29,865 nt of DNA from positions 1 to 29,865 of the IMG/VR virus record IMGVR_UViG_3300033067_001429; one strand, written 5' to 3'. Within the stretch, counting starts at the first letter, position 1; each line of letters begins with the position of its first letter. The notes under the pieces were generated by a model that did no database searches, was not told where the DNA came from, and saw nothing but the letters and a program-made list of their open reading frames with translations. Of the stretch, positions 2,407 to 26,776 are shown piece by piece. The position numbers and the translations under genes were made by a program. Source of the stretch: a virus (lineage: Duplodnaviria > Caudoviricetes).

Positions 2407-2754
2407 CTACGACGGTTTCAGATCTTTATTGAATATGTCATTGTATTCTGATAACGGAATCCACTCCCGATGGGTGTCGCATCCTGGGCAAATCCAATGT
2501 GTCCTGTTGAATTCCAGATTCTCTTCCAGAGTCGTAAAAAGGACCGCCGTCTCGAACATTGTTAAATCTCGATATTCTCTTCGAATTGTCTCGTTCGAGT
2601 GATCCCACCGCCACCGCTCCTCTATACAAGCACCACCGGTTCCATTATATCCGGTCACAACTACAAAAACATCCCACCAATGATTGGCACCGAACCATGA
2701 CCAACTCTCAGTAGACTTCCAATAATATTCTTTACCTTCGACTATTTCTGACAT
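2407..2754 (-). CDS. Hypothetical protein (Trp-rich, one CxxC)
   Basis: 115-aa ORF that ends a chain of overlapping - strand genes. No recognised family. Confidence 0.6.
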   Translation of the reverse strand: MSEIVEGKEYYWKSTESWSWFGANHWWDVFVVVTGYNGTGGACIEERWRWDHSNETIRREYRDLTMFETAVLFTTLEENLEFNRTHWICPGCDTHREWIPLSEYNDIFNKDLKPS

Positions 2755-3064
2755 TTTTAATCACTTTCGCTGCCTTATCGAGTGCCTCTGGGTCAGATAA
2801 ATCAATAAGTGAAAAGCTACAGCCGTCCACTATCAGTATTTCAATACATAGCATGATATTAACATCATGGTCGATCCACGCATTGCCGCCAGCCCATTCC
2901 AACTGGTAGATCAGATTCGGACGGTTTTCAGGGTAGTAGATTGGCCGTCTAGCGGTCGATGAGACTTTCAGATCTCGAACATGTCCAGTTACAAGTTCCT
3001 GCAGTCCAGACAGCACTGGAACATCGAACGCATCTCGACCATTTACGTTCTGGTATGGTTCCAT
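2732..3064 (-). CDS. DP-motif family protein
   Basis: C-terminal LIDLSDPEALDKAAKVI. Its ATG overlaps the upstream TGA (TGATG). Confidence 0.75.
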   Translation of the reverse strand: MEPYQNVNGRDAFDVPVLSGLQELVTGHVRDLKVSSTARRPIYYPENRPNLIYQLEWAGGNAWIDHDVNIMLCIEILIVDGCSFSLIDLSDPEALDKAAKVIKNVRNSRR

Positions 3065-3912
3065 CACCGAAACGATCTAAAAGTAAGACTTATTCGACAC
3101 CCGCATGGCTTGTCATGCTTGGGGATTTTGTGGAAGTGTGTATCCTGATATCCTGGTGCCATCACGAAGAGGCTACCGTTTTGCAATAAGAATCGTTGGT
3201 TGGCCGGAACGACACCTTTTTGGTCTTTGGGTTTTACCCAGATTTCTCGTTCCGCTCCATAAGAGCAGACGGCGATCGGTTGATCACTACGCATTCCTTC
3301 GAAGTCATCAGCATGCCATCCTAAATGCTGGTGCTGGTCGTCATATTTGTTCATGAAACAGACATTAAACTCTGCCCCTAATTGCTGATTGAGAGTCATT
3401 CTCAGCGAGTCAATTGTTTCTGTGAATGGTTTGCTATGGTATTCCGTATCACCAGCCGCACGATTGCCGTAAGAGTATGTGCGTGGGGTTTCAGACATGA
3501 AATACTCATGGCGGGCTGTTCTCTTGGTTTCCCAATCGAGGCCGAGCAGGTGCTCAAGCATATACTCTACATGCAATTCATTGAATTCTGGAGGGGCACT
3601 GTAGAATATTCCATCAACGTACTTGATCATCATAACCTTCTGAAGCTTTTCGTAAATTGTTTCGAACAGGTTTGGATCACTGATGCTTATCGTATAAGAA
3701 GAGTTATCCGAACCAAGCACACTATCAAATACGGCGATGACTACGTTTTCTCTCTGAAAAAACAGAGCCACGCTGTTGGTTGGAGATCGTAACTCTAGTG
3801 AGTTTGGTCTAGACGCTATACCGGCATATGAATGAGGGCCGTTGACAATATGCTTAGCGAAACGCTGGCGTATGTCGTTTATGATCAGTTCTTTGATAGT
3901 TTCTTCGGTCAT
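3064..3912 (-). CDS. AlkB-family 2OG-Fe(II) dioxygenase (ALKBH2/3-like) with an N-terminal DP-motif domain
   Basis: AlkB motifs: FNVCFMNKY, GWHADD (HxD), GSLFVM, HKIPK, RISLTFR. The first ~93 aa end in ISISDPNLFETIYEKL. Confidence 0.88.
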   Translation of the reverse strand: MTEETIKELIINDIRQRFAKHIVNGPHSYAGIASRPNSLELRSPTNSVALFFQRENVVIAVFDSVLGSDNSSYTISISDPNLFETIYEKLQKVMMIKYVDGIFYSAPPEFNELHVEYMLEHLLGLDWETKRTARHEYFMSETPRTYSYGNRAAGDTEYHSKPFTETIDSLRMTLNQQLGAEFNVCFMNKYDDQHQHLGWHADDFEGMRSDQPIAVCSYGAEREIWVKPKDQKGVVPANQRFLLQNGSLFVMAPGYQDTHFHKIPKHDKPCGCRISLTFRSFR

Positions 3913-4376
3913 TGTTTTGGCAATCTCTTATTGCCAATCACGGTCTTGCGATAAGCAATGATGGCTGGTAGAAGATTGGAAACTATTTCTTCGGCGGTGC
4001 TGACGACTTCTTCCATACTGTTGGCCCTATTGTTAGCCTCTGAGGTCACATATTCAATGAACTCTCGAGGCAATTCGCTTAAAGCTTCGGTCATTTCTTC
4101 ATCAAACTCTTTACTGGTCATTCTCTCCAGTTGCGGAGTGATGTCGTATTTGGACGACAGTCGGTAACCAACTTCACCGTTTTTGACGTACTGCGAGAAG
4201 ACTGCAACAGGTACTGTAACAGGATTCTTGCGAGATGTAGTCAGTTTGAAATGTTGAACCGCATCTTCGGCTACCGACTTGATGTCGTAGGTGTTAAAGC
4301 GGTTGTCTACCTGCACCTCCTTGAAGTATTCTCGACCATCTGGAAGCACAGCCTTATATAATTCTGCCTTAGCCAT
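3909..4376 (-). CDS. Hypothetical protein
   Basis: 155-aa ORF with an AGGAG Shine-Dalgarno upstream. Its stop overlaps the next start (ATGA). Confidence 0.7.
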   Translation of the reverse strand: MAKAELYKAVLPDGREYFKEVQVDNRFNTYDIKSVAEDAVQHFKLTTSRKNPVTVPVAVFSQYVKNGEVGYRLSSKYDITPQLERMTSKEFDEEMTEALSELPREFIEYVTSEANNRANSMEEVVSTAEEIVSNLLPAIIAYRKTVIGNKRLPKQ

Positions 4377-4412
4377 TATCGCTCCTGTATGATGTGACTC
4401 TACTCTAATACG

Positions 4413-4736
4413 CTACGTGCAGTCGCCGTAGAACCAGATGAATTCGATAATAGCATCGATAGCATCTGGATTTGACAGTTCTATCTCGAAAATACGCAGT
4501 TGATCAGACCACTCCATCGGATCTGACCCACACCATATACTAGCATGTACCATGGTTATAAGAACGTTGATCTTTTTGGCCGTGACCCATACCAAGCCCC
4601 TCGAACCATTCCACATCAATGTCTTGATACCACTGCCAATGCAATTTCCAATCAGATCCACGTTCTCGTAATTTAAATCGTAGAGTAGATTACGAATAGT
4701 ATCTAGTATGCAATCTTCAATATCAGTGTTCAGCAT
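4413..4736 (-). CDS. DP-motif family protein (NP variant)
   Basis: N-terminal helix EDCILDTIRNLL and C-terminal FEIELSNPDAIDAIIEFI. Confidence 0.7.
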   Translation of the reverse strand: MLNTDIEDCILDTIRNLLYDLNYENVDLIGNCIGSGIKTLMWNGSRGLVWVTAKKINVLITMVHASIWCGSDPMEWSDQLRIFEIELSNPDAIDAIIEFIWFYGDCT

Positions 4737-4764
4737 ATTTTCCAGTTCCGGCGATTAAACTATA

Positions 4765-6207: not shown

Positions 6208-6254
6208 AAAATGCCTTTACTGATGGACGTAAATATAATACATCGGAGAACAAT

Positions 6255-8189
6255 ATGCCTAGTAATTGGTTAGTATTCGACAGAATCCGAGCGATGACTC
6301 GGCAAGGTCGCGTACATCAGGTAGAACGAGTTTATCAAGATCAATCACAGCTGGATCGGTTGACGGCTGGTGGTGACTTCTTAGACTTTAATTCGCAATC
6401 TGCGATTTTAGATCAGACAAACCTCCAGATAAATCGCTTAGAGAGATATAAGGATTACGAGCTTATGGACAATACGGGCGAGATTTCTCTCGCCCTTGAC
6501 TTGTATGCGGATGAGGGGAGTCTGGTAGATCCGGAACGTAAGCATACGCTGATCATCCGTGCCCGTAACCGACGACTCAAACGAGAATTAGAAGATCTTT
6601 TCTTTAACGTTCTACAGTGGGATACTTATTGCCGCCCAACTATACGATACTTGTGCAAGTATGGCGATATGCCATATGAAATAGTTCTAGACCAGCACCG
6701 CAGCAGTGTCTCTGCACTGAAGTTTATGAATGTTTATAATTTTACCAGAGTGGAGACACGATTCGGAGACCTGATCGGTTTCTTCTACATGGATGCTCTG
6801 TGGCCGAAACCGCAGTTTCTGCATCCGTGGCAGACCATGCACTTACGGTTGACAAGCTTCGAAAACTTGTATCATCCGTATGGCAGGAGTATTATTGACG
6901 GGGGCCGTAAGGCTTTTAAGCAGTTGCGTCTGATGGAAGATGCGGCTCTGATTTATCGTATTACTCGTGCTCCTGAAAAGCGTAAGTTTACGATACCTGT
7001 TGGAAATATCGCTCCGATGGAAGTGCCTGGCTATATGCAGATGATTGCCAGAACTTTCAAACGGCAGCGGTTCTATAATCCGACTACTGGCTCATTTGAT
7101 GAACGATATTCTCCGCTTATTCAAGAGGATGACTTTTTTCTCCCTCGTCGTAGTGACGGTACCGGACCGGATATTGACACTTTGCCGGGCGGCGAGAATA
7201 TGGATAAGATTCAGGATATTGAGTACTTCAAGAAGAAGATGATTGCTCCTACCAAGATCCCGTTTGCCCGTGTGGGTATCGGTGAGGGTGGTGGTGAGGC
7301 TAGTGAGAAGTCGCTGTCCCAGTCGCACTCGGAATTTGCCAAGGCTGTGCAGTGGGTTCAGCGGGAGGTTGCTTCCGGTCTACGCAAGGTGGCTATTGTT
7401 CATTTGGCTCTGCGTGGCTACAGCATTGAGGATTTGAAGGGCTTTGAAATTGCCCTTACGGCTACCAGTGCCATGGAGGAACTGTATAGGATCGAGACGT
7501 GGCAGACCCGTGTGGGTGTTATGTCTGATCTGAAGGAGTTGGGATGGTTCCCCAAAGAATGGATTGTAACGCATTTTACTGATCTGTCTCCTGACGAAAT
7601 TGAAGAATTGAAAGACGCTGAAGAAACGGAATCGCAGGGTGGTGTTGGTGGCGGGATGCCTGGCGGATTGGATGTGCCTGGCGATGATATGCCTGAACCG
7701 CTTGGCGGAGATATGGACCCAACTCAGATGGAGCCTCCGCCTCCTGATGGTACTGTGCCGCAGGATGCTGAACCGTTGCCGCAACCACCTTTGGAAGGGT
7801 TTGATCAGGCGGCTGCTAATAGGTTGTTGGTGGAGATGCGTAAGGAGCGTTCGAAGGCTGCCAGAATCAAGCTGGTTGAACGTTGGGCAAAACGTGCTGG
7901 TAAGTTGTCTACTGCCGATGATCGCGAGTTTATAAGTGGTTTCGATCACTTATTGGAAAGCAAAGAATTGGATGGTCTGTCGATGACCGTTGTCTCGTCT
8001 TCAGACGCCATTCATGATCCGAATGATGACCATGGCTTGCTTGTGGAGTGGTCCGTTCCAACGGATCTTCGCAATGCGGCTATCAAGGAAGTTTTGGATG
8101 TTATCACTGTTGGTGGCATCGTCGAAGAAGACTTGGACGATGAGATCCAATTTAGTGATATTCCAACATCCACGATCAGTGGCTTGTAA
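6255..8189 (+). CDS. gp20: Portal protein (T4 gp20-like)
   Basis: QLRLMEDAALIYRITRAPEKR.F...VGN, EDDFFLPRR, IDTLPGG and DIEYFKKK motifs. GGAG SD. Acidic Pro/Gly-rich tail. Confidence 0.95.
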   Translation: MPSNWLVFDRIRAMTRQGRVHQVERVYQDQSQLDRLTAGGDFLDFNSQSAILDQTNLQINRLERYKDYELMDNTGEISLALDLYADEGSLVDPERKHTLIIRARNRRLKRELEDLFFNVLQWDTYCRPTIRYLCKYGDMPYEIVLDQHRSSVSALKFMNVYNFTRVETRFGDLIGFFYMDALWPKPQFLHPWQTMHLRLTSFENLYHPYGRSIIDGGRKAFKQLRLMEDAALIYRITRAPEKRKFTIPVGNIAPMEVPGYMQMIARTFKRQRFYNPTTGSFDERYSPLIQEDDFFLPRRSDGTGPDIDTLPGGENMDKIQDIEYFKKKMIAPTKIPFARVGIGEGGGEASEKSLSQSHSEFAKAVQWVQREVASGLRKVAIVHLALRGYSIEDLKGFEIALTATSAMEELYRIETWQTRVGVMSDLKELGWFPKEWIVTHFTDLSPDEIEELKDAEETESQGGVGGGMPGGLDVPGDDMPEPLGGDMDPTQMEPPPPDGTVPQDAEPLPQPPLEGFDQAAANRLLVEMRKERSKAARIKLVERWAKRAGKLSTADDREFISGFDHLLESKELDGLSMTVVSSSDAIHDPNDDHGLLVEWSVPTDLRNAAIKEVLDVITVGGIVEEDLDDEIQFSDIPTSTISGL

Positions 8190-8265
8190 ATCGCGTGGTT
8201 AACTTGTGGTTTTGTGTCAAAACTAGTAATAGTTACACGCGGCGATAGAATATCAGGAGTACGTA

Positions 8266-11367: not shown

Positions 11368-11369
11368 TC

Positions 11370-12197
11370 ATGAGACAACCAGGTATCATCAGCCGCCGAA
11401 CTCCAACGACTCGCGTTGACATGGGCGACAGATTCGTCCAGATCAACAGAGCCATGATCGCCGAAACCGGTGTTATCCCAGCCGGTTTGCGGATGATCAG
11501 CGATACCTTCCCATTCCAGGTGATGGATAAGAAGGATGTGATGAGAGAAGACGCATATGGGCGTGAAATGCCCGTGATGCGTGTAACTGGTCTCATCCAG
11601 AATGGCGACAAAGAGAACGCCAATGGTCGGTACTACTCGACATCAGAAGTTCTGACGCCAGCCGTTCGCCAAATCCAAGAAGACATCGCCAACCGGGCTG
11701 TGCCAGGCGAATTTGACCATCCAGTGGACGCCAAGATCCATTTGGACCGTGTCAGCCATCTTATGACGAAAGTCTGGATGGAAGGGAAGAAGGTGTACGG
11801 CGAGGCTGAGGTCTTGCACAAGGTTCCGTGTGGTGCTGCTCTGCGTGGCCTTTTCGAACACAAGATGCGTGTGGGTATTTCCTCACGCGGTGTGGGCGAC
11901 ATGCAGGTTTCGGAACGTGATGGTCATGAAGTCTACCGGGTTATGCCTGGATATGCTTTCGTGACGTGGGATGCGGTAGCTGAGCCGAGCGTGTCGGGAG
12001 CCATTCTGAATATTCAGGAGGGGCTGACCAAGCGTTTGCGACCGATCAAGGAAAGCCGGAATAAGTTCTCTCCGGAAGTATACGATAGTATGCTGGTGGA
12101 AGAGATCCAGAAATATTTCGGCCTCGATAAGAAGCGGATCAACTTTCCGGTGACTCAAACCAGATCTGTGAACAAGCTTCGAACTCGACGGTCGTAA
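11370..12197 (+). CDS. gp21: Prohead core protease (T4 gp21-like)
   Basis: NANGRYY, GEFDHP, DRVSH, GISSRGVG (catalytic Ser region) and TWDAVAEPS. Confidence 0.95.
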   Translation: MRQPGIISRRTPTTRVDMGDRFVQINRAMIAETGVIPAGLRMISDTFPFQVMDKKDVMREDAYGREMPVMRVTGLIQNGDKENANGRYYSTSEVLTPAVRQIQEDIANRAVPGEFDHPVDAKIHLDRVSHLMTKVWMEGKKVYGEAEVLHKVPCGAALRGLFEHKMRVGISSRGVGDMQVSERDGHEVYRVMPGYAFVTWDAVAEPSVSGAILNIQEGLTKRLRPIKESRNKFSPEVYDSMLVEEIQKYFGLDKKRINFPVTQTRSVNKLRTRRS

Positions 12198-12200
12198 TTT

Positions 12201-12596
12201 CTATAAATCGGTCATAAGTTGGATATTGATTGCTCCTATATCCCACCCATAAAATATTAGGGTGTTTACGTCTATTATTCGGTGTTCGTGCTCTAATTCG
12301 AACCCATTTAACTCTTTGAATAGATTATTTGGGAATTCTGGATCACAAATTTCATATATCTTAATCATTACCCCACATATATTATAGATAACTTCATCTT
12401 CTTTTATGACTATGCTATATTCTACATATCTTGTTTTTAGATCGCGTCGTTCAGTTTCTCTAGTCCATGCTATAACATATGGTATCTTATTAAGATTGCT
12501 ATCTATGATGATGTTATTAAGGTTGCTATTTATGATGATGTTTGGAAATAGCTGTTGTACGTGCGATAATATGACTTCGCTGAGTTCTTTCAACAT
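12201..12596 (-). CDS. DP-motif family protein
   Basis: IYEICDPEFPNNLFKEL. AT-rich and antisense within the head operon. Confidence 0.75.
   Translation of the reverse strand: MLKELSEVILSHVQQLFPNIIINSNLNNIIIDSNLNKIPYVIAWTRETERRDLKTRYVEYSIVIKEDEVIYNICGVMIKIYEICDPEFPNNLFKELNGFELEHEHRIIDVNTLIFYGWDIGAINIQLMTDL
12487..12540. repeat. 27-bp tandem duplication (2 copies, 25/27 identical)
   Basis: ttattaagattgctatctatgatgatg followed by ttattaaggttgctatttatgatgatg, encoding NIIINSNLN/NIIIDSNLN on the - strand. Confidence 0.85.
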
Positions 12597-12892
12597 TTGT
12601 TGATATCCAAAAATGCCATGTTGTCTCTGCGGATGTCATCGCACATGTTGTCTGGGAATTCGGGATCGTTTATTTCATACTCTATTGTATGCTGATTTGT
12701 TGTATATTTAACAATCGTGCTACGAACGACTATTTGTTTCGGATCACATGGTATCCATGGATGTTCGGCGGTACGTCCCCATCGTATGACTATCATAATA
12801 ACAAATTTATGTGAATCGTATAAATCTGTCCATGAACATATCCCTAGAGCGTTTAATTCCTGTACTACAAGTTCTTTAATCATTTCCATCAT
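12590..12892 (-). CDS. DP-motif family protein
   Basis: MIKELVVQELNALG N-terminal helix and IEYEINDPEFPDNMCDDI. Confidence 0.75.
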   Translation of the reverse strand: MMEMIKELVVQELNALGICSWTDLYDSHKFVIMIVIRWGRTAEHPWIPCDPKQIVVRSTIVKYTTNQHTIEYEINDPEFPDNMCDDIRRDNMAFLDINKC

Positions 12893-13807: not shown

Positions 13808-15442
13808 ATGTTGCCCAGTCGCAACTCGTCCCGTTTCTCGACCCCCACGCAAGCCGCTCAGCGTGCCCAGCGCCGCCACCTCACCGAAAGTGCGAATGGC
13901 GTCCGCCGCACGATGACCGAAGAAACCGACCTCCACCGGGCGGCGGTGCTCCACGAGAGCAAGAAGAACCAGACCGTGGCCAAATGGTCCCCGGTGCTCA
14001 GCAAGTGCCGCGAAATCGCCCCCAGCAAGTTCGGCATGATGGCTGCCGTGCTGGAAAACCAGTACAAAGCGTGGTCCCCCGAAAACCGCTCCATGCTGTT
14101 TGAGGACCAGACCACCACCGCCAACATCGCGGACTTCACCCGCTTCGCCCTCCCCCTCATCCGCAAGAGCTACTCCAAGCTCATCGGCGACAACCTCGTC
14201 GGCGTCCAGCCGATGAGCCAGCCCGCCAGCCTCATCTTCTACATCCGCTACCGCTACGCCCTCTCCAAGGGTCAGACGGTAGCTGGAACGCAGATTATGC
14301 GGCAGAACACCAGCCAGGGCTACGCCCGTCAAAACGGCTGGGCCTTGGACCCCTACTACTCGTCCCAAGAAGTGCGTGGCGAAAGTGCGACGGTCAGCGG
14401 CGGTAACACCATCTCCGCCACCCTCGCCCACCGCCCCGTCCTCGCTGGGACGGTAGTCGTCGAAGCCTTCGCCACCGAAGACGATGCCAGCCCCAACTGC
14501 GACGACGCTGTCCCCTGCCTCCGCGTCAGCTTCGACTCCGACGGTGCTCCAGACGTCGTCCTCATCGGCGACTGCACCGAGTTCACCGACACCATCGCCG
14601 TCGACACCGTAACGGCTGGGGCCACCGCCTTCAACCACTCCACCGGTGCCGTCCAGATCAAGTTGTCCGCTGGCTCGTTCCCCACCGGAGCAATCGCCCG
14701 CGTCAACTACGAATACGATCTGGAATCCAACCCCTTCCAGCCCGAAGTCACCCTCTCAATCGACAGTGACTCTGTCGCCGCCATCACCCGCAAGCTCAAG
14801 ACTAGCTGGAGCTTGGAAGCCGCCCAGGACCTGAAGGCCGTTCACAACATCGATGCCGAAACCACCCTCACCGACCTCATGGCCGATGAAATGGTTGCGG
14901 AAATCGACCGTGAAATCATCAACGACCTCATCATCGCCGCCGCCATCCGTGCCGACCACAACTTCGCCACGGCTGCCGGAGCCTCGGTCAACTTCACCGA
15001 CCGTAACATCGCGCTGATGTACAAGACCCTCGAAGTCGCGAACATCATCCACCGGGTCACCCTCCGTGGTCCCGCCAACTGGATGGTCATGTCCGCCGAC
15101 ATCGCCTCCAAGTACGAGCAACTGAACGACTTCCGAGCTTCGGATGCCTTCACCACCGAAGGGGTGGACATCGGCATCATGAACATCGGAACCATCCAGG
15201 GCAAGATGAAGATCTACAAAGATCCCCTCTTCCCCAACTGCAAAATCCTCATGGGCTTCAAGGGGAACTCAGTACTGGATGCCGGATACTTCTACGCTCC
15301 ATATATCCCACTCCTCAGCACCCCAACCGTCATCGACCCCAACTCGTTCACACCGAACAAGGGCGTCATGTGCCGGTACGGAAAGAAACTTATCGAGGAT
15401 GGCGGGCTGTACTACGGAGTTATTACGGTGTCGAACCTGTAA
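13808..15442 (+). CDS. gp23: Major capsid protein (T4 gp23-like)
   Basis: VGVQPM..P..LIFYIRYRY, RKLKTSWSLEAAQDLKAVHNIDAE, EIDREII, YAPYIPL and RYG motifs. Strong C-ending codon bias. GGAG SD. Confidence 0.97.
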   Translation: MLPSRNSSRFSTPTQAAQRAQRRHLTESANGVRRTMTEETDLHRAAVLHESKKNQTVAKWSPVLSKCREIAPSKFGMMAAVLENQYKAWSPENRSMLFEDQTTTANIADFTRFALPLIRKSYSKLIGDNLVGVQPMSQPASLIFYIRYRYALSKGQTVAGTQIMRQNTSQGYARQNGWALDPYYSSQEVRGESATVSGGNTISATLAHRPVLAGTVVVEAFATEDDASPNCDDAVPCLRVSFDSDGAPDVVLIGDCTEFTDTIAVDTVTAGATAFNHSTGAVQIKLSAGSFPTGAIARVNYEYDLESNPFQPEVTLSIDSDSVAAITRKLKTSWSLEAAQDLKAVHNIDAETTLTDLMADEMVAEIDREIINDLIIAAAIRADHNFATAAGASVNFTDRNIALMYKTLEVANIIHRVTLRGPANWMVMSADIASKYEQLNDFRASDAFTTEGVDIGIMNIGTIQGKMKIYKDPLFPNCKILMGFKGNSVLDAGYFYAPYIPLLSTPTVIDPNSFTPNKGVMCRYGKKLIEDGGLYYGVITVSNL

Positions 15443-15544: not shown

Positions 15545-15588
15545 CATGGTTAAAAACTAATATGATGCTGTATTAGTTTTTAACCATG
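15545..15588. repeat. Perfect 18-bp inverted repeat with an 8-nt spacer
   Basis: catggttaaaaactaata (15545-15562) and tattagtttttaaccatg (15571-15588). A degenerate third copy lies at 15511-15528. Confidence 0.85.
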
Positions 15589-15655
15589 TATTTGTTTGCT
15601 TTAAGACATCGCCACACAAACCGGTCGTAAACTGTCTAAACAATATGGAAACAAA

Positions 15656-17839: not shown

Positions 17840-17912
17840 GGCGATGTCTTATCGTTCATGTATTTGCGGTGTGGTGTCTGGGGATGGTTTCTTCAATTTT
17901 CGGGAGAATGGT

Positions 17913-18254
17913 ATGCTGGCTCAAAGAACTCGGCGGCGGATGCGTAAGAATACTACGGTGGCTGTGTCGACTGTTGTTCAGTTGCATGTCGAGTACAAGC
18001 TGTCTGGTGGTAAGGATTCTCTGTATGTGACTTCTGGGGATATCGCCGAAGCCATCATCGCACAGCAAAAGGGGCACTACTGGGACCGCAATCCCAATGC
18101 CATGGATTCTCATGGCTTAGCTCGGAGCGTCGGCGATATCATGGGACAGTCGCTGAAGTCTCATGGTGTCAAGCTGCTACCCAAAGATGGGAACTATTGG
18201 GTTATTAATGATGATACTATCGCGGCAATGCATAGGATTGTTGAGAGTCTGTGA
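17913..18254 (+). CDS. Hypothetical protein
   Basis: GGGAG SD before ATG 17913. It is the first gene of the coupled array. Confidence 0.65.
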   Translation: MLAQRTRRRMRKNTTVAVSTVVQLHVEYKLSGGKDSLYVTSGDIAEAIIAQQKGHYWDRNPNAMDSHGLARSVGDIMGQSLKSHGVKLLPKDGNYWVINDDTIAAMHRIVESL

Positions 18255-18565
18255 ACAATGCTCCTGCTGGTCTGCTGCCTTGTGATATCCTGGCTCTGAA
18301 CGTATTCGCCGAGTTGCGGCGGCTGCTTGGGGATGGGTTGTCACTGCGCATGCGTGAAGAGTGGTCTTCGAATGCCTGTGTGCGTGCTGGGACAGGATTT
18401 CCAGTAATCTGTTTGATTGCCTTTCATTATACCACTGGCATTGTCGAGGTGGAGCCATTTACTGGCTCTGCTTCATTGGGGGCAGTGGGGTTCGAACTAG
18501 CAGATCCTGATTTCTTCCATAAACTAGTGGAATATATTAAGAGGTTGCATGCTCTACTTCAGTGA
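18251..18565 (+). CDS. DP-motif family protein
   Basis: FELADPDFFHKLVEYI. GTGA start/stop overlap. Confidence 0.8.
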   Translation: MNNAPAGLLPCDILALNVFAELRRLLGDGLSLRMREEWSSNACVRAGTGFPVICLIAFHYTTGIVEVEPFTGSASLGAVGFELADPDFFHKLVEYIKRLHALLQ

Positions 18566-18878
18566 GGTGCGGCATATATTGCAGTGCATAAATGAGATAT
18601 TGAATGCAAATGGGTTTACAAGTCATACACATAATACGGACGCCCGAGGAAGTGAATCTACTCTTTATGTTGGCATGGGTCTGTTCGCGAAATTCGCTCA
18701 TGTTACAGTGTATAGAGATGCCAGCGTTGTAGTGCATGCTATGTATGGCGATGAGACTGATGGCTTTAATTCGCGGCTTTCTAAGCGTTTTGAATTGAGT
18801 GATCCAGAGTGTTTTGATAATATTGTCAAATACTTGACAGAATACCATAAGCGGTTACTTATAGGGCTGGGGTCATGA
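18549..18878 (+). CDS. DP-motif family protein
   Basis: HILQCINEILNANG and FELSDPECFDNIVKYL. Confidence 0.8.
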   Translation: MLYFSEVRHILQCINEILNANGFTSHTHNTDARGSESTLYVGMGLFAKFAHVTVYRDASVVVHAMYGDETDGFNSRLSKRFELSDPECFDNIVKYLTEYHKRLLIGLGS

Positions 18879-19096: not shown

Positions 19097-19448
19097 TATG
19101 GCCAAACGTATCCGTAAGTCAACTGACTCTGAGAAGTTGGCTGCGGCTATATTCGATGAATTGCAGAAGATGCTTGGGGATGCATATTCTTTAACACCTG
19201 ATGGGGTTTATCATGTGCACGTTTATAATCTTAGCCAACAGATCGATGGGCGTGGTGGGTATGTTGCTAAATTGAGCGTCCCTTGTGGTGATAGTGTGCT
19301 TAAATTGCGATACGAAGATAAATTATTAGAAGAGTTTAAATATCTCGATTTTCTTTTTGCTGACCCCGAATTTTTTGATAAAGTGGTGAGATGTATTATC
19401 GCTCGTCATGATCCAGAGAAGTTTTGGGGTTGGCCTAACAATGCCTGA
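19089..19448 (+). CDS. DP-motif family protein
   Basis: FLFADPEFFDKVVRCI. Confidence 0.8.
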   Translation: MINMAKRIRKSTDSEKLAAAIFDELQKMLGDAYSLTPDGVYHVHVYNLSQQIDGRGGYVAKLSVPCGDSVLKLRYEDKLLEEFKYLDFLFADPEFFDKVVRCIIARHDPEKFWGWPNNA

Positions 19449-19782
19449 TGATGTGCTGATTTTTAATATGGTTTTTATGTGGCTGAAGTCGCGTAATGCG
19501 AAGTGTCAGAAGAAGCCATTTTCTTCTGTCGTTACCAGAATCTTACAAGAATGCGACGTGATTATGGCGTGTGGCGTTGATCGAGTGGTCAAGGTGTGTG
19601 TTAGTAGTGGTGATGTTGTATGTGGTTATTCTGCCTTCGACAATGTTGTGGCTGATTATTACGCTAATAAAACTGGGCTGTGTGATCATGATACTATTGT
19701 TAAAGTTGCCTTATGCGATCCGCAGTGCTTTGAAAAAGTGTGGATAAGTATTTGTAAAATGGTTGGACATGATGGATTATGA
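19441..19782 (+). CDS. DP-motif family protein
   Basis: VALCDPQCFEKVWISI. Start placed at the ATG overlapping the end of the previous gene. Confidence 0.8.
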   Translation: MPDDVLIFNMVFMWLKSRNAKCQKKPFSSVVTRILQECDVIMACGVDRVVKVCVSSGDVVCGYSAFDNVVADYYANKTGLCDHDTIVKVALCDPQCFEKVWISICKMVGHDGL

Positions 19783-20092
19783 CATTCTATGTGCATTGCA
19801 TGAATGGTTAACCCATAGTGCTGCTGTTGATCTTGTTATTAATTTTCATCATCCAGACTATGAATCGCCGGAATCCTTGATCGAAAAGTCATCAACTGTT
19901 GCAGCTATTTCGATATCGTTTGATGACGCTGAAGTGGCTGTATGGATTATTGGTTGTGATTTTATGGTTTATAAGTCTACTTGGGTTAAGACTTTTGATG
20001 AAGTAGTGTCTACCAGGATTCCGGTTAGCGATCCTGATAGCTTTGATAGGGTATTAACTACGGTTTGTGCGAAGTTGGGATATGGCTACTGA
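19769..20092 (+). CDS. DP-motif family protein
   Basis: DILCALHEWL and IPVSDPDSFDRVLTTV. Confidence 0.8.
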   Translation: MMDYDILCALHEWLTHSAAVDLVINFHHPDYESPESLIEKSSTVAAISISFDDAEVAVWIIGCDFMVYKSTWVKTFDEVVSTRIPVSDPDSFDRVLTTVCAKLGYGY

Positions 20093-20363
20093 CATTCTTC
20101 AAATATTGTGTGAGTGGTTGTCTCAATATGAAGGGGCTAGTGTCGCTGTTAGAATGTTTAGGTATGAAGATGCTGCAAGAGATCATATTGGTATTCTTTT
20201 TACTGAAAGTGCTATAGTTATTAATGTTAGGATAGTTGGAGGTGATATAAAATATGGTGGGCCGTATGCCAAGGCTGGCGGGGGCGTGCCGTTGGTTGAT
20301 CCTGAATGTTTTGAGAAGTTGTGGTCGGTTATATGTTATGCTGCTGGTGCGATTAATGGATAA
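20082..20363 (+). CDS. DP-motif family protein
   Basis: DILQILCEWL and VPLVDPECFEKLWSVI. Confidence 0.8.
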   Translation: MATDILQILCEWLSQYEGASVAVRMFRYEDAARDHIGILFTESAIVINVRIVGGDIKYGGPYAKAGGGVPLVDPECFEKLWSVICYAAGAING

Positions 20364-20841
20364 TCTTACTGTTGCTAATGCGATTGCTCAACAGATCACT
20401 AGTGAGAATTTGGTTGTTACACGTGTGAGGAATGTGCATAGTGAGTATATTGCTACGATGCTCGTCGGATGTACTATTGATATTCGGGTATGTGGTGTGG
20501 GTGGCTCAATCAGAATGCATCAAATTTTTTCGACTTTGAAAGATCAGTTATTAGCTCCTGGTAAGCAGATTGAACTTAGTATTCACGATTTTGATAATGG
20601 TATTGAACTTACCGTTTGGTATGTTTTGTGTCCGATTACTGATAATATTAAGCACTGTATTCAGGAACGGGCTGTTTTTATCATCGGAGGGTATATAATA
20701 TGCGAAGAGATTAATAACAAGAGCACGAATCCGCGTATGCGGCTGTTTTATCTCATTGAACTGTCCGATCCGGAGTGTCTTAACAAATTTCGGTTGTGGC
20801 TTTTAGAATCTGATGGATATTATTCAAAACAAGTTAAATGA
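20356..20841 (+). CDS. DP-motif family protein with N-terminal extension
   Basis: IELSDPECLNKFRLWL. The start is uncertain. Confidence 0.72.
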   Translation: MDNLTVANAIAQQITSENLVVTRVRNVHSEYIATMLVGCTIDIRVCGVGGSIRMHQIFSTLKDQLLAPGKQIELSIHDFDNGIELTVWYVLCPITDNIKHCIQERAVFIIGGYIICEEINNKSTNPRMRLFYLIELSDPECLNKFRLWLLESDGYYSKQVK

Positions 20842-21292
20842 ACAATATTCTAATGTAGAAGTCCTTGCTAGGAGTAGTAGGAAAATGGATTTCAATGCGA
20901 ATGAGTGGATCGCCAGGACATTGAATACTGAACTGGATACGTTAGATGCTATGGATCTAGATGAGTCCATATTATTTGAACATCTGGGTGACTATAAAAT
21001 TCCTGCTGAGCACTTTTTGCTGCGGAGATTTTTGAGATCGCTGGGTTTCAAGACTAGATTTAATAGTGTGGCTTCATGGGCCAATGACTGGGAGATCAAC
21101 AAGCCGTCTATAGTATTCATCATAAATGAGCCACCGAACTACTTTTATATTACTATCGTGAAGACTTCGGTAGAGGTGTCTCCGCATTATGATCACAATA
21201 GTCCTTGCTTGTGTTTGGATATGTGTGATCCGGATTTCTTCGAAAAACTTGCTGAGCTACTGGAAAATTATAGAGATTTTCAATATGCTTGA
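20813..21292 (+). CDS. DP-motif family protein with N-terminal extension
   Basis: LDMCDPDFFEKLAELL. Confidence 0.78.
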   Translation: MDIIQNKLNEQYSNVEVLARSSRKMDFNANEWIARTLNTELDTLDAMDLDESILFEHLGDYKIPAEHFLLRRFLRSLGFKTRFNSVASWANDWEINKPSIVFIINEPPNYFYITIVKTSVEVSPHYDHNSPCLCLDMCDPDFFEKLAELLENYRDFQYA

Positions 21293-21653
21293 TGTAATTA
21301 TCGATTTTATGATCAATAGTGGTCTAAATATCCACACACTAAGTAATGCTGCTTTAGTTTTAGATCCCGAGTCGCAACTGTCTTCTTTGGGGCCAGCAAC
21401 TGGTCAAGAGTTTGTGCGTGGCGGAGTACGATGTTGTGTTGTGTTGGTAGAGGCTGTGTGTGTTGTGTCTTTTGATTTTATTGATGAAACAGGGACATAT
21501 TGTTTCGATTGTATTCGTATAGATCTTAGTAGTCCGAATTTCCTTGATGAGTTATTAGAGACTATTAATGATGTAGCATCTCGCTGTGTCTTAGAGGTGA
21601 ATTTGCGACGAGTGGTATTGACGATCGGTCTTATCAAGGATGGTGTAATATGA
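21285..21653 (+). CDS. DP-motif family protein (SP variant)
   Basis: MLDVIIDFMINSG and IDLSSPNFLDELLETI. Confidence 0.75.
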   Translation: MLDVIIDFMINSGLNIHTLSNAALVLDPESQLSSLGPATGQEFVRGGVRCCVVLVEAVCVVSFDFIDETGTYCFDCIRIDLSSPNFLDELLETINDVASRCVLEVNLRRVVLTIGLIKDGVI

Positions 21654-21985
21654 ACGCACAGAATGATGTTTTTAATACTGTCTTTGATTTTATCAAAGCC
21701 AATGGCGTTACTGCCGTGATGTACACCAATGCGACCATATCAATCTTCGCTTCTGAGGAAGATTTCCAATCTGGCAAGCATGCTTGTTCTGTGACCATGT
21801 CTTTGCAGTTTGCACATTTGATACATTATGATAAACCGATGGTCGGTAGGATCAAGGATAAAATTCAAACATTTGATTTAAGCGACCCAGATTCTCTTGA
21901 TAAATTGTTAGAAGGAATACGAATGTTGATCTGGATAAGATTGAACAAGATGACTCAGGCGATGCCGCGTTCTCACCATGCTTAG
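21650..21985 (+). CDS. DP-motif family protein
   Basis: DVFNTVFDFIKANG and FDLSDPDSLDKLLEGI. Confidence 0.8.
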   Translation: MNAQNDVFNTVFDFIKANGVTAVMYTNATISIFASEEDFQSGKHACSVTMSLQFAHLIHYDKPMVGRIKDKIQTFDLSDPDSLDKLLEGIRMLIWIRLNKMTQAMPRSHHA

Positions 21986-22346
21986 GGAAGTATTAGAACA
22001 CGTACGAGAAAATTTTGGTGGATTTTCGTGTCCAATATATAGTTATGGTAAAAGAGTGGAATGGCACTATTTTCATGTGCTTACATGCGAACAGCACCAG
22101 TGTTATCCATATAATATCGATGTAATATCTTCTGTTTGGGGTCCCGGTGGCAAACAGATTTGTCGCGTGACTGCGACTGATGAGTGCATCATTGTTTGGG
22201 GATGGAGTTATGAAAATGGCCGCTATCATATGGACCACCCATATGATAATACTACTAAAGTATACCTGAGCGATCCTGACTTATTCGATAAGGTGTATAC
22301 AGCCATTCGAAATTGTTACCCTAGGAGCAATTATGTTGAACTCTGA
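21978..22346 (+). CDS. DP-motif family protein
   Basis: VYLSDPDLFDKVYTAI. Confidence 0.8.
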   Translation: MLREVLEHVRENFGGFSCPIYSYGKRVEWHYFHVLTCEQHQCYPYNIDVISSVWGPGGKQICRVTATDECIIVWGWSYENGRYHMDHPYDNTTKVYLSDPDLFDKVYTAIRNCYPRSNYVEL

Positions 22347-22629
22347 CATCGAAACGGCTCTTCTGGAACACTTTGCGGAGAGGTTCAACAGCCTCGAATA
22401 TCCCGTATCATCACATATGCTTGTGAACGGTCTGATTATAAATGAGGCTTCTGATAATAGTATTGTGTTGTCTATAGATAAGTGGACTATAGCAGGCAAT
22501 ATAACAATTATTGTGTGTTATGATGGATATAAGTCTGACGCTGGGTATTTTAATGTGTGCGATCCAAACTGTGTCGACAGTGTTGTTGAATATGGTGTGA
22601 AGTTATTGGAAAGGCGTCGGCGTGATTGA
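22333..22629 (+). CDS. DP-motif family protein
   Basis: FNVCDPNCVDSVVEYG. AGGAG SD. Confidence 0.75.
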   Translation: MLNSDIETALLEHFAERFNSLEYPVSSHMLVNGLIINEASDNSIVLSIDKWTIAGNITIIVCYDGYKSDAGYFNVCDPNCVDSVVEYGVKLLERRRRD

Positions 22630-23146
22630 TCCGGTTGATAAGGCTAAGACGTTTGACTGGGTTTTAGTCAAAATCAAGACTTGTTATGATAAGTATAAAA
22701 AGTATCATGAACGTGAAGACTTTGAGATAATGGGAGCGATGCACTGCTTGGTATCTGATGCTAATTCATATCACAAGTATATTGTATCATACAAATGTGA
22801 CGATAAACAGGGTGAAATCGCCAGGCAGCATAACCGCATTCTGGAACTAGAAAAGGAAGTGGCTCATTTGAAGAATTTCATGCTATTGGAATCCATAAGT
22901 CGACTACTGAATGATAATGGGATCACAACGACCACATATCCCGAAGTTGATTCAAATATTCGTGATGATATCTCAATTATCACAATCGATATCGATCAAC
23001 GTATAATTCGTATTATATTAGATGACGGCATGATTATGGTGGTTTCACAACACTATCCGTCGATATTAATCCAATTGGCAGATCCGGACTGTTTCGATCA
23101 GTTACTTGATGTTATCAAGAAAATCAGAAACCATGCCGCGCCGTGA
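22622..23146 (+). CDS. Helical/coiled-coil N-terminal domain fused to a DP-motif domain
   Basis: EIARQHNRILELEKEVAHL followed by MLLESISRLLNDNG...IQLADPDCFDQLLDVI. Confidence 0.75.
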   Translation: MIDPVDKAKTFDWVLVKIKTCYDKYKKYHEREDFEIMGAMHCLVSDANSYHKYIVSYKCDDKQGEIARQHNRILELEKEVAHLKNFMLLESISRLLNDNGITTTTYPEVDSNIRDDISIITIDIDQRIIRIILDDGMIMVVSQHYPSILIQLADPDCFDQLLDVIKKIRNHAAP

Positions 23147-23495
23147 TATTTTATGTGTTGTGAGTGAGTTTCTGGAAGCCAATGGTGTATGTGGCTGCCT
23201 GTGGGGCAATGGTTTGGTAGCCCAGCATAGAGGTGAACAGGAATATTTGGTATACAAAATCCAATCCATTGATTCTCAGAGGTTTCCGATATTTGGAAAG
23301 TCGTGTGGTCCTAATAGTTTGCGTTTGATATACGCGATGACTATTGAACTGTCGGATGACGTGGTTGAGGTGAGGGCGCATACTAATGCGGTACATGCGA
23401 AAGACGGTTGTGTTGGATTCGAGCGACATAGAATTCAATTGTCCGACCCCGACATGTTTGAAAAAGCTTTAACGGCAGTCCGATCATGGCTGTAG
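23133..23495 (+). CDS. DP-motif family protein
   Basis: DILCVVSEFLEANG and IQLSDPDMFEKALTAV. Confidence 0.8.
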   Translation: MPRRDILCVVSEFLEANGVCGCLWGNGLVAQHRGEQEYLVYKIQSIDSQRFPIFGKSCGPNSLRLIYAMTIELSDDVVEVRAHTNAVHAKDGCVGFERHRIQLSDPDMFEKALTAVRSWL

Positions 23496-23946
23496 CCTAT
23501 GAGATGTTATGGGCCGTTACGAAATCGCTTACTGACAATCGGATGTCTTATACAAATATCCAAATCCAAGAATAACACTTCCTCCAGGCCAGCCATTTTG
23601 GCGAGTCGAATGCGAAATGGCTACGATCACATATGATATGTATAAGGACGAATATATAGCAGAATTAAGAGTATCTCTAGATGAATCGATGCTAATAGAT
23701 TTAGGCATCATTGAGCCAAGGATGTATCGGCGGCGTTTCGATATTAATGATTCTAATGCCTTCGATGATATTGCTGAATATGTCAGTCCAAATAAGTTCC
23801 ATCTCATGGATAGGTTCATGTATGGTAAGGTTGTGACATGGTTTGATATGCTCAAACGTGTTCTAATCATAGGCGGCACATCATTAGCATTTGGTCTGGT
23901 TAGTGTAGCCATTGTGTTCGTGATAATTTACTTCAAAGGGACATAG
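23486..23946 (+). pseudogene. Frameshifted DP-motif family member with a C-terminal hydrophobic (TM-like) tail
   Basis: A coupled ATG at 23486 gives MAVAYEMLWAVTKSLTDN..., which stops at 23575. The -1 frame is open from 23536 to 23946 and has FDINDSNAFDDIAEYV plus a hydrophobic tail. Confidence 0.55.
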
Positions 23947-24318
23947 ATGGATAATCGCGAAATCAGGATCATATCAGAAGGCTCTGAAGACTTTCGGATA
24001 GCTCTTTCGCTATTCAAGGCTAAGACAATAATCGGCTATAAGATAATAGAGAGTGCAGATCCAACAATTCCTGATTCGATGGTGTTGTATGAATTTCCTT
24101 CGAAGCATGCGACAGCATTCCCATTTCCATTCACTTCCAAACTAGCGTGTGATTTCGTCCTGGCCTGGCTCGAACAGGTCGATTACGGTAAACAACCTGA
24201 TCACGATGGCGATAATCATAAAGGGTGGAAGATGGAGAATGAAGAGTGGGGTCGAGTTAATGGCGACTCGGCAGCTTTCGTCAAGATCTCGCCAGAATGG
24301 GCTATGTACGGGAAATAG
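23947..24318 (+). CDS. Hypothetical phage protein (no DP motif)
   Basis: 123 aa with PDHDGDNHKGW...WAMYGK. It abuts both neighbours. Confidence 0.7.
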   Translation: MDNREIRIISEGSEDFRIALSLFKAKTIIGYKIIESADPTIPDSMVLYEFPSKHATAFPFPFTSKLACDFVLAWLEQVDYGKQPDHDGDNHKGWKMENEEWGRVNGDSAAFVKISPEWAMYGK

Positions 24319-24320
24319 AT

Positions 24321-25040
24321 ATGGATACTATCGAAACAATGTCTAATGATCTGTTATACATGCTGAGAAATCGGTATTGCAAGATAATGCATGCCGATGA
24401 CTTCGATCCAGATGAGGATATCACATATGAGGAAGTTGTAGACCTGTGGCGTGCACAAAAGGGGCTTTGTGCGTTAACTGGTCTGCAGATGACGTATGGT
24501 GCTCCGGACATGGGCACTGTTACGTTGAATCGCAAGAATCGTCGCGGATCATATTCGCTTGTGAATATGCAATTGGTTTGTGCCTGGGTGGACCGGGCCA
24601 AAATGTGCGACGATCACGAGTTTCGCAGGCTATTATTGTCGTTGCAGGAAAATAAACGACTGACTGCTCATAAGCTAGATCCAGTTGTTGTGGATGTCGA
24701 TTTCGCCTTTCTCAATGACATTTACGAGTGGGCTGTGGACCAATTTTGGTGCCATAATGTTTCATTATTTCTTAATACTAATCAGAGTTTGAGAATCGCT
24801 CACGACATGACGACTGAGTTGTTTATAGATATTGCCGCATCAGGAGTGGTAACGGTTATTCAAAAGCATTTTCATTCATCACATGCTGACGAAACAATTT
24901 TTAAGACAGAACTGGCTGATCCTAATTCTGTATCGAATATTAAAGATGTGCTGGGTGCGAAACTGTCGGATATAATCGCTAATTACCCGTGTGTAGATGA
25001 CTTATATGGGGCTAAGCAGTCCGGCCTCACTGAGGTGTAA
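24321..25040 (+). CDS. Degenerate HNH-like domain fused to a C-terminal DP-motif domain
   Basis: LWRAQKGLCALTG...TLNRKNRRGSY...NMQLVC, and C-terminal TELADPNSVSNIKDVL. Confidence 0.68.
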   Translation: MDTIETMSNDLLYMLRNRYCKIMHADDFDPDEDITYEEVVDLWRAQKGLCALTGLQMTYGAPDMGTVTLNRKNRRGSYSLVNMQLVCAWVDRAKMCDDHEFRRLLLSLQENKRLTAHKLDPVVVDVDFAFLNDIYEWAVDQFWCHNVSLFLNTNQSLRIAHDMTTELFIDIAASGVVTVIQKHFHSSHADETIFKTELADPNSVSNIKDVLGAKLSDIIANYPCVDDLYGAKQSGLTEV

Positions 25041-25073
25041 TTTACGTATGGCAGCGGTGGGTCACAATGGTAT

Positions 25074-25661
25074 ATGGATACTACTAGGCCACCGCTCATC
25101 CGCCCGCCACAGCACGTCACTGATGCGTACCGTCGTGTGTATGCCGATCTACGTAATGCTGGTATTCTTGCGAAATTGCAGCCAGCGATACACGCGGACA
25201 AACTGCATTGGCGGCTACGTGCCTATGCTTGTCCTAATGATAAGGCTGCCTATACGAAATTTTATGATATTTGTATTGGCAATGATTTTATTGAGGTTTC
25301 TGCTCCTAGTTATATTGTCCCAAATTTGACACTTCAAAGGAGTCAAATCGATCAGGTTGTGGCGTGTGTACAGTCGCAGATGCGGGCTGTTCGTCACGAT
25401 ACTACTCAGATCGATGAAGCATTATATTGTAGTATATTCGAATTACTGTTGGAACGTGGTGTAAAGTGTGTCAAATCTGACATGATATACTTTGTGCTAG
25501 ATGATATGAATCATGTTCCAATCCTGGTTGAGCACGAATATGTAATTGTTGGTCATGTCGAACGCTGGAAACAGTATTCATGCACCTTTCGAGTGGGGTT
25601 GGGCGATCCAAACATGATCGATGAACTTGTCGCGTACTTGGAGAACTTGCGTGCCGCTTGA
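25074..25661 (+). CDS. DP-motif family protein, probably two tandem domains
   Basis: 195 aa. The second half is ALYCSIFELLLERG...VGLGDPNMIDELVAYL. Confidence 0.72.
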   Translation: MDTTRPPLIRPPQHVTDAYRRVYADLRNAGILAKLQPAIHADKLHWRLRAYACPNDKAAYTKFYDICIGNDFIEVSAPSYIVPNLTLQRSQIDQVVACVQSQMRAVRHDTTQIDEALYCSIFELLLERGVKCVKSDMIYFVLDDMNHVPILVEHEYVIVGHVERWKQYSCTFRVGLGDPNMIDELVAYLENLRAA

Positions 25662-26034
25662 TTTAGCCATGTTCATCGTTTTGGAGACTTTGCGGCTGGC
25701 TGTTCGTCCGTATCAATATCTGACTGTATTGCCTCCAACCAATACAAGTGCGTACTGTGTAGTGCTGTTCTCTGAAGCACCATGTGGTGCGTTTGAGACT
25801 TTATTGCACTGGCATTTCAATGACGACGAGATGATCATATCGACTGCGTTGATACATGGACGCAAGAGGCGTAAGCTTCCGGATGTACATGTGGTCGTTT
25901 GGCTTTCGGACCCACAATTTCAGAAGATATTGATAGAGACCATCCAGGGGTTGATTAACGATTGCTCTACGATGCGATGTTTTGATACTAGCCATACATG
26001 GACAATTGACAACGCCGTAAAGGTGCGGTTGTAA
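25651..26034 (+). CDS. DP-motif family protein
   Basis: VWLSDPQFQKILIETI. GTG start after GGAG. Confidence 0.72.
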   Translation: MPLDLAMFIVLETLRLAVRPYQYLTVLPPTNTSAYCVVLFSEAPCGAFETLLHWHFNDDEMIISTALIHGRKRRKLPDVHVVVWLSDPQFQKILIETIQGLINDCSTMRCFDTSHTWTIDNAVKVRL

Positions 26035-26384
26035 TGGATGATGCTCAGGTTATGCAGAGTCTGAATTTATTTCTGCTGGATAACAATATCCCAGCTGATA
26101 TCCAATATGTAAATGTTCCGAGAGTGCCGCCGTTTGAATCTTTAAAGTATCATATGATAAAGATTTACGGGGTAATAGTAATCTATTACGAATCGGCCAG
26201 CGGGAATTTCGAAATCGCCATTCACGGAGAATTCAAACAGTTCCTTGAGCGGTGCTGCAAGGACATTGATCTTGCCGTCTATAAGTTTAAAGTCAATATT
26301 GTTGATCACGACTCGTTTGATAATGTGTTGGTTATAGTTAGAGACTTAATGCGAATACATCAGAACTGTAGGATTGGAAAATGA
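26034..26384 (+). CDS. DP-motif family protein (DH variant)
   Basis: QVMQSLNLFLLDNNI and VNIVDHDSFDNVLVIV. TAATG overlap. Confidence 0.7.
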   Translation: MDDAQVMQSLNLFLLDNNIPADIQYVNVPRVPPFESLKYHMIKIYGVIVIYYESASGNFEIAIHGEFKQFLERCCKDIDLAVYKFKVNIVDHDSFDNVLVIVRDLMRIHQNCRIGK

Positions 26385-26776
26385 CTGATGCCACATATAC
26401 TCACATTTCTGTGATATATGGTATACAAGACATGTTGAGAAAACGTGGCATAGCATCTCAAGTCAATTGCGATGCGTCTGACCCACACTTGACGTGGGAA
26501 ATGGGATGGATTTATTTCAGAAATAAAATCGATGAACCCATTATCATAATCGTTCGCACGACATGTGTCCGTTCGATGCCCGGCGGAGAGATGGTCTTAG
26601 ATATTGATGATCCGACAAGTTTTGATAAAATCATGGATTTTGTTGGATCGCATAATTTTTTCGACAGAATAATGTTTGGTATGATTATTGGATGGTGGAA
26701 TTTGTTATGGAGGTTGGCTTTGGCTGTGGTATTTTATGGGACGGCTATTACGGTTATCGCAATGGTGCATAAATGA
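26381..26776 (+). CDS. DP-motif family protein with a C-terminal TM-like tail
   Basis: LDIDDPTSFDKIMDFV followed by the hydrophobic LLWRLALAVVFYGTAITVIAMV. Confidence 0.75.
   Translation: MTDATYTHISVIYGIQDMLRKRGIASQVNCDASDPHLTWEMGWIYFRNKIDEPIIIIVRTTCVRSMPGGEMVLDIDDPTSFDKIMDFVGSHNFFDRIMFGMIIGWWNLLWRLALAVVFYGTAITVIAMVHK

Follow-up and report, generated by a model that had tools for sequence, protein, structure and literature searches.

Large expansions of small proteins are already known in jumbo phages; one report describes a zinc-ribbon family of about 35 copies in Bacillus phage G, whose function is given as untested (PMC7824862). Here we analyse a virus record of 29,865 bases (IMG/VR record IMGVR_UViG_3300033067_001429, its full length hereafter called the window), which carries 25 members of another small-protein family, recognised by a C-terminal Asp-Pro (DP) motif. 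As with the phage G zinc ribbons, a jumbo phage carries one small domain dozens of times; unlike them, the window family is predicted to be alpha/beta, has no conserved cysteine pattern and spans a whole uncultured clade. The family profile has no match in phage G, PA5oct, Atu_ph07 or LR756511 (30 matches in the positive control, the relative G003), and what marks lineage-specific expansion in jumbo phages is found here: many paralogs per genome, greater closeness within a genome and absence from sister lineages. The clade-wide family itself is undescribed. A literature search, which misses most subscription papers and preprint supplements, found no description of it, and the searched text of a 2026 survey of huge-phage structures (10.64898/2026.10.24.761521) holds no relevant passage, although its supplements, outside that search, may list the family.

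By predicted fold, the nearest described domains in VIA-align comparisons are built from an antiparallel sheet with a pair of helices against one of its faces (Z 6.9-8.8 over 85-100 aligned residues): the C-terminal domain of Med17 (Z 8.8), frataxin/CyaY (4hs5; Z 7.9, root-mean-square deviation 3.1, 87 residues aligned, tied with unrelated entries), the Fbxo7/PI31 FP domain (7.3) and the type III secretion chaperone/YbjN group (6.9), with Pfu 1yb3 at 8.1. Identity to the frataxin-type folds is 7-14%, no match stands clear of the others, and none of 102 family members matches the frataxin/CyaY signature in Pfam or NCBIfam; type III chaperones and YbjN have a central helix between strands 3 and 4, whereas the family model has two terminal helices only. 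The C-terminal domain of T4 MotA (Z 6.9) and the DUF5655/DUF1801 domains are likewise small, phage-encoded and alpha/beta (template modelling (TM) scores 0.5-0.6), but MotA binds DNA through a basic surface, while the family domains are acidic and bear no sequence relation to it. PsiB (Z 7.4 and 7.1 for two models), T7 Gp1.2 (5.5) and the immunity protein TriTu (6.0) are small alpha/beta proteins of similar arrangement, each of which inhibits a single host or rival protein by binding it (RecA for PsiB and dGTPase for Gp1.2). They are single-copy genes, and the likeness (Z 5.5-7.4) is at the level of a common arrangement. Because the top matches crowd together, we take the fold to be a common arrangement that names no function: it is predicted to be frataxin- or chaperone-like, without a decisive match.

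A divergent paralog family with one predicted fold

A preliminary description of the window had proposed about 25 open reading frames (ORFs) or domains at three loci, on both strands, that follow one plan and belong to no known family. All 25 could be delimited as one domain of about 95 residues, with 9114 bases of family sequence making up 31% of the window (Table 1). Leave-one-out hidden Markov models (HMMs) recover the members reciprocally, 24 of 25 scoring above every non-member among the 342 stop-to-stop ORFs of the window; the exception, member 23 (25651-26031), falls below one non-member. Pairwise BLAST joins the members in only 22 weak pairs, most spanning just the motif, and body alignments barely beat shuffles (mean score 23.2 vs 22.2). 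The strands had been said to show almost no identity between copies, and identity to the first sequence of alignment A1 is 10-27%; the hydrophobic pattern, however, is kept along the whole domain rather than in the motif alone: helix 1 and the middle strands hold hydrophobic columns as regular as those of the motif. The motif as originally written fits two places in its literal form and 15 in a relaxed form, against a mean of 1.41 and a maximum of 4 in 100 dinucleotide shuffles, and the same description had placed its conservation at the protein level; DNA identity over it is just 69-87%, so it is not a DNA repeat.

Further arrays were reached by motif-pattern scans of viral and metagenome contigs. 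A first iterative profile built on all 158 loci was discarded after it drifted into unrelated motif-bearing proteins; the profile was rebuilt on 21 loci picked for several members or the full plan, and decoy-controlled iteration added 83 further domains, of which the final profile, A2, omits five that are partial or doubtful, together with the frameshifted window member. No Pfam, PHROG, NCBIfam or PADLOC family fits: window members have no Pfam or PHROG match through the family domain, and no model of the four libraries matches more than one of 102 family sequences (E 0.01 for PADLOC, PHROG and NCBIfam), which includes any defence or anti-defence model in PADLOC, PHROG or NCBIfam, no search with a dedicated anti-defence library having been made. 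HMMER against 1.84 billion representatives returned 29 matches, comprising 19 window proteins, nine outside proteins with the same plan and one unrelated 4003-residue repeat protein, rejected as it aligns to the motif alone. Matches to Rab GTPases (best E 0.002) were set aside as a chance likeness of a strand-turn-helix, because the model lacks a P-loop fold. A word-index homolog search with A1 found just four of the window's own proteins among 407 candidates, none of 8000 scored with A2 proved to be a longer form (weak evidence), and feature searches of the ESM Atlas gave no usable match. Together, sequence comparison and modelling support an undescribed, highly diversified paralog family with one predicted fold.

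AlphaFold2, given 102 sequences, models member 7 as a helix (residues 4-20), five strands and a second helix (88-108), with a predicted local distance difference test (pLDDT) value of 83 and a predicted TM score (pTM) of 0.73. A second member, the C-terminal domain of member 22 (15-25% identical), has the same element order and structural neighbours, so that the two predicted structures agree in fold. Both helices would pack against one side of the sheet, leaving the other face and the loops free to diversify. No Foldseek match reaches E 0.001: among full-length matches in the PDB the MotA C-terminal domain ranks best (TM 0.61, E 0.21), TriTu comes up at E 0.096, and viral matches in BFVD are uncharacterised small proteins, several from Bacillus phage G. 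The predicted fold recurs, with no profile match, in six proteins of phage G and in pairs from other phages, which suggests that it may have been expanded independently several times.

The motif runs from the last strand through a turn into the opening turns of the last helix, and lies in the most confident part of the model (pLDDT 95 for residues 81-90, with a second figure of 92) rather than in a flexible segment separable from the fold. Across 201 members, positions -4, -2, +4, +7 and +11 are hydrophobic in 87-97% and position 0 is D, N, E or S, a pattern of alternating hydrophobics in the strand, Asx at the cap, Pro at N1 and acidic residues in the first helix turn; exposed motif positions vary, exposure and burial being judged from the sequence pattern. 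Only D and P stand out. In alignment A1 Asp and Pro are each at least 90% conserved; over the window Pro is put at 88%, the 97-99% for Pro in relatives being inflated by a collection rule that demanded it, while D/E at +5 reaches 61-76% and K at +6, the lysine of 'FDKL', 22-44% (44% in the window; 22% in 67 members taken from three complete relatives that were found through their capsid gene). In a published analysis of solved structures (PMC4515027), no features mark helix starts more often than an Asx N-cap and Pro at N1, and a wide pattern scan found the same string in ABC1 kinases, NMT1 proteins, capsid E and ACS/CODH, besides the Rab GTPases and the 4003-residue protein. The motif had been read as a constant docking site for one common partner; because conservation is confined to core and cap positions, unrelated proteins carry the string too, and the motif lies inside the folded domain, we lower that reading, and regard the motif as most likely a folding feature, namely the last strand with an Asp-Pro helix cap.

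Expansion and turnover in an uncultured phage clade

The window carries terminase, T4-like portal, prohead protease and gp23-type capsid genes, as found by Pfam and PHROG scans. Its capsid protein is 68-86% identical to counterparts at 75 IMG/VR loci, on contigs of up to 408 kb, and reaches a best identity of only 39% among 50,697 deposited phage records, with no cultured relative there and no relative found among GTDB contigs; the window is therefore, on sequence, a fragment of an uncultured T4-like jumbo-phage clade, which is widespread and consists of phages of 350-410 kb. The host is possibly a planctomycete: among 92 relatives of the phage ClpS protein only two carry an organism name, from Pirellulales and Gemmata genomes. 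A sigma-factor search gave matches of 31-34% only and no clue to the host, and tRNA and Rfam scans of the window had no match. The capsid gene (13808-15442) has a G+C content at third codon positions (GC3) of 0.82, with C alone at 0.61, in a window of about 45% G+C, which suggests adaptation to a GC-rich host.

Profile A2 matches eight of 15 viral records at E <=0.001. In seven records read nearly whole, at a threshold of >=10 bits, family genes number 40 of 606 in G003 (408 kb), 11 of 552 in G004 and 10 of 490 in G002, all complete genomes, 31 of 150 in G006 and 23 of 244 in G001, and none in the complete G005 (523 genes) and G007 (477 genes); with iteration the domains number 47, 11, 10, 35 and 24 in the five bearers, and reversed decoys gave no match at 12 bits. 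The G001 capsid protein is 77% identical; G006 is placed in the clade by shared core genes, because its capsid gene was not found. The capsid tree groups the family-less G005, G007, G009 and G010 on a single branch and places G008, G011 and G013, which have no match in records 49-70% complete, among family-bearing genomes. Most small jumbo-phage genes look like unrelated orphans; here a single scaffold, diverged beyond BLAST recognition, accounts for as much as about 7% of the genes in a complete genome.

Of the members in six genomes, 52% by motif and 43% by body have their closest neighbour in their own genome, against 20% when permuted, and only 25 body alignments exceed the best shuffle, 17 of them within one genome. 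There are thus no recognisable orthologs by sequence, and each lineage appears to have grown its own set: the copies expanded largely within each genome. In relatives they are scattered over the genome, away from virion genes. AT-rich relatives carry tandem small genes (L027:6253-7043, L063:2144-7786) that share the N-terminal helix pattern but whose DP motif is degenerate or absent; several end in a hydrophobic C-terminal tail, and most fall below the score threshold.

In the main array of the window, 20 of 23 gene junctions overlap. When starts are called automatically at the first Met, 61% of 134 family genes overlap or adjoin a neighbour, against 33% of 2835 genes outside the family. The share of genes with a Shine-Dalgarno-like word ahead of the start is 0-10% for the family in four genomes and 36% in G001, against 29-44% for core genes. 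This layout points to translational coupling, by which the overlapping genes would be read as long operons; promoter and terminator scans of the array were at chance level. The domains are acidic in 25 of 25 window cases (isoelectric point (pI) 4.1-6.5; net charge -1 to -11), and pI exceeds 8.5 in 16% of 201 members. Family GC3 in the window is 0.40, against 0.82 in the capsid gene, and third positions follow strand bias; the low value fits a non-virion role.

Strain alleles were taken from contigs of run X1, possibly the window's own sample. Outside segment 25286-25405, family genes show eight synonymous and two non-synonymous codon changes (21% synonymous sites, p 1e-4; a compensated one-base insertion and deletion at 21936-21943 was excluded), while that segment, a low-confidence linker outside the family domain, has ten non-synonymous and five synonymous changes and a 12-base insertion. 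One contig joins 22080 to 23972, thereby omitting 1891 bases in which lie four members and the greater part of another (the shorter flank of the joint has 30 letters, and the letters between are not known), which marks a possible loss of several copies, and a second contig skips 242 bases of member 25. Member 20 is frameshifted, with the first helix read from 23486 to a stop after 29 codons and the remainder, including a hydrophobic C-terminal tail, in the frame of ORF 23617-23946. Slight as this evidence is, the synonymous excess, contig joints and frameshifted copy point consistently to purifying selection alongside gain and loss of copies.

Readings of the repertoire

Of the earlier reading, a diversified paralog repertoire without a known family stands; the constant docking motif is not supported, and the packaging tag is unlikely. 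The account that we favour, and to which we give about an even chance, is a birth-and-death repertoire in which one acidic scaffold, with DP as its structural cap, uses its variable remainder to bind a different host protein in each copy. Copies would arise by tandem duplication, diverge fast and, when host targets change, disappear through deletion or frameshift. Binding would fall to the open sheet face and the loops, and the targets would be host defence or regulatory proteins, by analogy with the small mobile-element inhibitors PsiB, T7 Gp1.2 and TriTu, whose Z values are unremarkable. Should the copies prove to be binders, they would make up a natural collection in which to look for new host defence targets and anti-defence proteins, possibly in planctomycetes, a group with hardly any known phages, and the family offers a direct test of why jumbo phages are so large.

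Several points weigh against this repertoire. Every fold match has Z <=8.8, a level that the tool itself says may mean a common arrangement only, and the top ones are Mediator Med17 and frataxin. Pro at 88% in the window goes beyond what a generic cap requires, burial of the motif is read from the sequence pattern and not from coordinates, and motif similarity follows genome more than body similarity does (effect 0.36 vs 0.23), as co-evolution with a partner would also produce. The selection signal amounts to ten codons in contigs of one run, and the changes in segment 25286-25405 are indistinguishable from neutral (p 0.19). Family GC3 equals core-gene GC3 in relatives; some window start codons were chosen by overlap, and the hint of a planctomycete host comes from two named ClpS relatives.

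The strongest competitor, which we consider doubtful, is an adaptor repertoire, in which the DP turn and last helix dock on one machine (the Clp protease system or a phage MoxR-type AAA+/vWA chaperone) and the variable sheet picks substrates, like F-box proteins. It would account for a Pro that is near-invariant amid saturated divergence and for the genome-specific flavour of the motif, and the 32 genes that three complete family-bearing genomes have and two complete family-less ones lack include those for ClpS, a MoxR-type AAA ATPase and a DUF2201 vWA/peptidase, ClpS being in none of the five family-less records G007-G011. However, that co-distribution compares three complete genomes with two on two branches of one tree, where shared descent explains it, and ClpS was not found in any of five partial family-bearing records (24-50% complete). 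The conservation of core and cap positions only, the exposed Lys not being kept, and a motif inside the folded domain rather than in a flexible tail also speak against docking. In its fullest form, somewhat more doubtful still, the family would be a virus counterpart of the F-box proteins, an adaptor library whose Asp-Pro turn and helix plug into Clp with the phage's own ClpS or into MoxR-vWA, whose sheet selects dozens of host proteins for removal, and whose members strains reshuffle by gain and loss.

It is unlikely that the copies are weakly selected filler, with tandem duplication occupying spare headful capacity and selection merely keeping the products folded and harmless. Body alignments hardly above shuffles, third positions that follow strand bias without the C-rich codons of the capsid gene, complete relatives without the family and one frameshifted copy would all agree with filler; 24 of 25 copies are nevertheless open, with overlapping junctions, strain alleles show the synonymous excess, and the hydrophobic pattern is kept over the whole domain.

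We find it improbable that the genes form a poly-immunity array, each copy neutralising another toxin or nuclease of the host or of rival mobile elements. They are tandem, diverse, small and acidic, TriTu is among their fold neighbours and nuclease genes lie nearby, but that fold match is weak, no cognate toxin was identified, and among 102 members at most one matches any given immunity family of PADLOC or Pfam. A role as MotA-like DNA-binding regulators or as nucleoid proteins, which the best full-length PDB match and the likeness of an Atlas model to DUF5655/DUF3788 might suggest, is very improbable: the acidity of all 25 window domains and the scarcity of basic members argue against it, the strands have no conserved basic positions, and no shared upstream motif was seen by eye. 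Least probable of all is a virion or packaging tag common to internal head proteins, since, although window copies flank the terminase, portal, protease and capsid genes and the domain is fused to an enzyme in two cases, copies in relatives are scattered, two complete relatives with capsid proteins 76% identical have none, five window copies lie on the strand opposite the head genes, and 24 longer members scanned hold no known enzyme domain.

Features of the window

Coordinates are collected in Table 1. Fusions among the members bring in an AlkB-like dioxygenase, an endonuclease VII-like domain and a transmembrane tail. A reading of 25074-25661 as a clean tandem of two domains was rejected, the N-terminal half being no clean second copy in the structure model.

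Table 1. Head genes and family members in the window (2OG, 2-oxoglutarate; LOO, leave-one-out HMM; A, alignment)
Feature	Positions	Strand	Basis
Terminase large subunit (part)	14..1738	+	PHROG-type library match
Member 1, 110 residues	2732..3064	-	LOO, 19.1 bits
Member 2, N-terminal family domain (3628-3912) and AlkB-like 2OG-Fe(II) dioxygenase	3064..3912	-	PF13532 E 2e-17; LOO
Member 3, NP variant	4413..4736	-	A; LOO
T4-like portal	6255..8189	+	Library match
Prohead protease	11370..12197	+	Library match
Member 4, between protease and scaffold genes, opposite strand	12201..12596	-	A; LOO
Member 5, nearest paralog of member 4 (33% over 67 residues)	12590..12892	-	LOO
gp23-type major capsid protein	13808..15442	+	Library match; served to define the phage clade
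Member 6, opens main array	18251..18565	+	A; LOO
Member 7, modelled helix-five strands-helix, motif at residues 81-92	18549..18878	+	pLDDT 83, pTM 0.73
Member 8	19098..19448	+	A; LOO
Member 9	19441..19782	+	A; LOO
Member 10	19769..20092	+	A; LOO
Member 11	20082..20363	+	A; LOO
Member 12, N-terminal extension	20356..20841	+	A; LOO
Member 13, start uncertain, N-terminal extension	20813..21292	+	LOO
Member 14, SP variant	21285..21653	+	A; LOO
Member 15, with strain variants	21650..21985	+	LOO; run X1 contigs
Member 16, Atlas model resembles DUF5655/DUF3788/DUF1801 (TM about 0.5)	21978..22346	+	LOO; ESM Atlas
Member 17	22333..22629	+	A; LOO
Member 18, domain 22862-23143 behind N-terminal extension	22622..23146	+	A; LOO
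Member 19	23133..23495	+	A; LOO
Member 20, frameshifted	23486..23946	+	Reading frames; same letters in a run X1 contig
Member 21, endonuclease VII-like N-terminal part and family domain (24690-25037)	24297..25040	+	phrog_1035 E 3e-4; LOO
Member 22, C-terminal family domain; divergent allele at 25286-25405	25074..25661	+	Model; run X1 contigs
Member 23, weakest	25651..26034	+	LOO, 4.1 bits
Member 24, DH variant without Pro	26034..26384	+	A; LOO
Member 25, predicted C-terminal transmembrane tail	26381..26776	+	LOO

Between the portal and protease genes lies an acidic low-complexity protein of 1033 residues (8266-11367), without a Pfam or PHROG match and conserved in position in relatives. Directly 3' of the capsid gene, a perfect 18-base inverted repeat with an 8-base loop (15545-15588) is probably a terminator. 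Two homing-endonuclease-like genes stand inside the head cluster (4765-6207, minus strand; 15656-17839, plus strand), one ending in a Mom-like acetyltransferase domain and the other combining a TnsA-like nuclease with a weak methylase-like region. Genes of this kind also follow the capsid gene in relatives. A sugar-modification cluster (26942-29838, minus strand) comprises a methyltransferase, a DegT aminotransferase, a small unannotated ORF and a GT2/Anp1 glycosyltransferase.

Among relatives, G003 encodes ClpS (L189:1827-2153), a MoxR-type AAA ATPase with a DUF2201 partner (L184:3381-6708) and a WGR protein (L186:958-1560); these phage genes are common to G002, G003 and G004 and are not in G005 or G007. 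At another locus, two genes (L082:3622-5813), which we take to be a nicotinamide adenine dinucleotide salvage pair (NAMPT-like and NUDIX-containing), adjoin a family array of at least 15 members.

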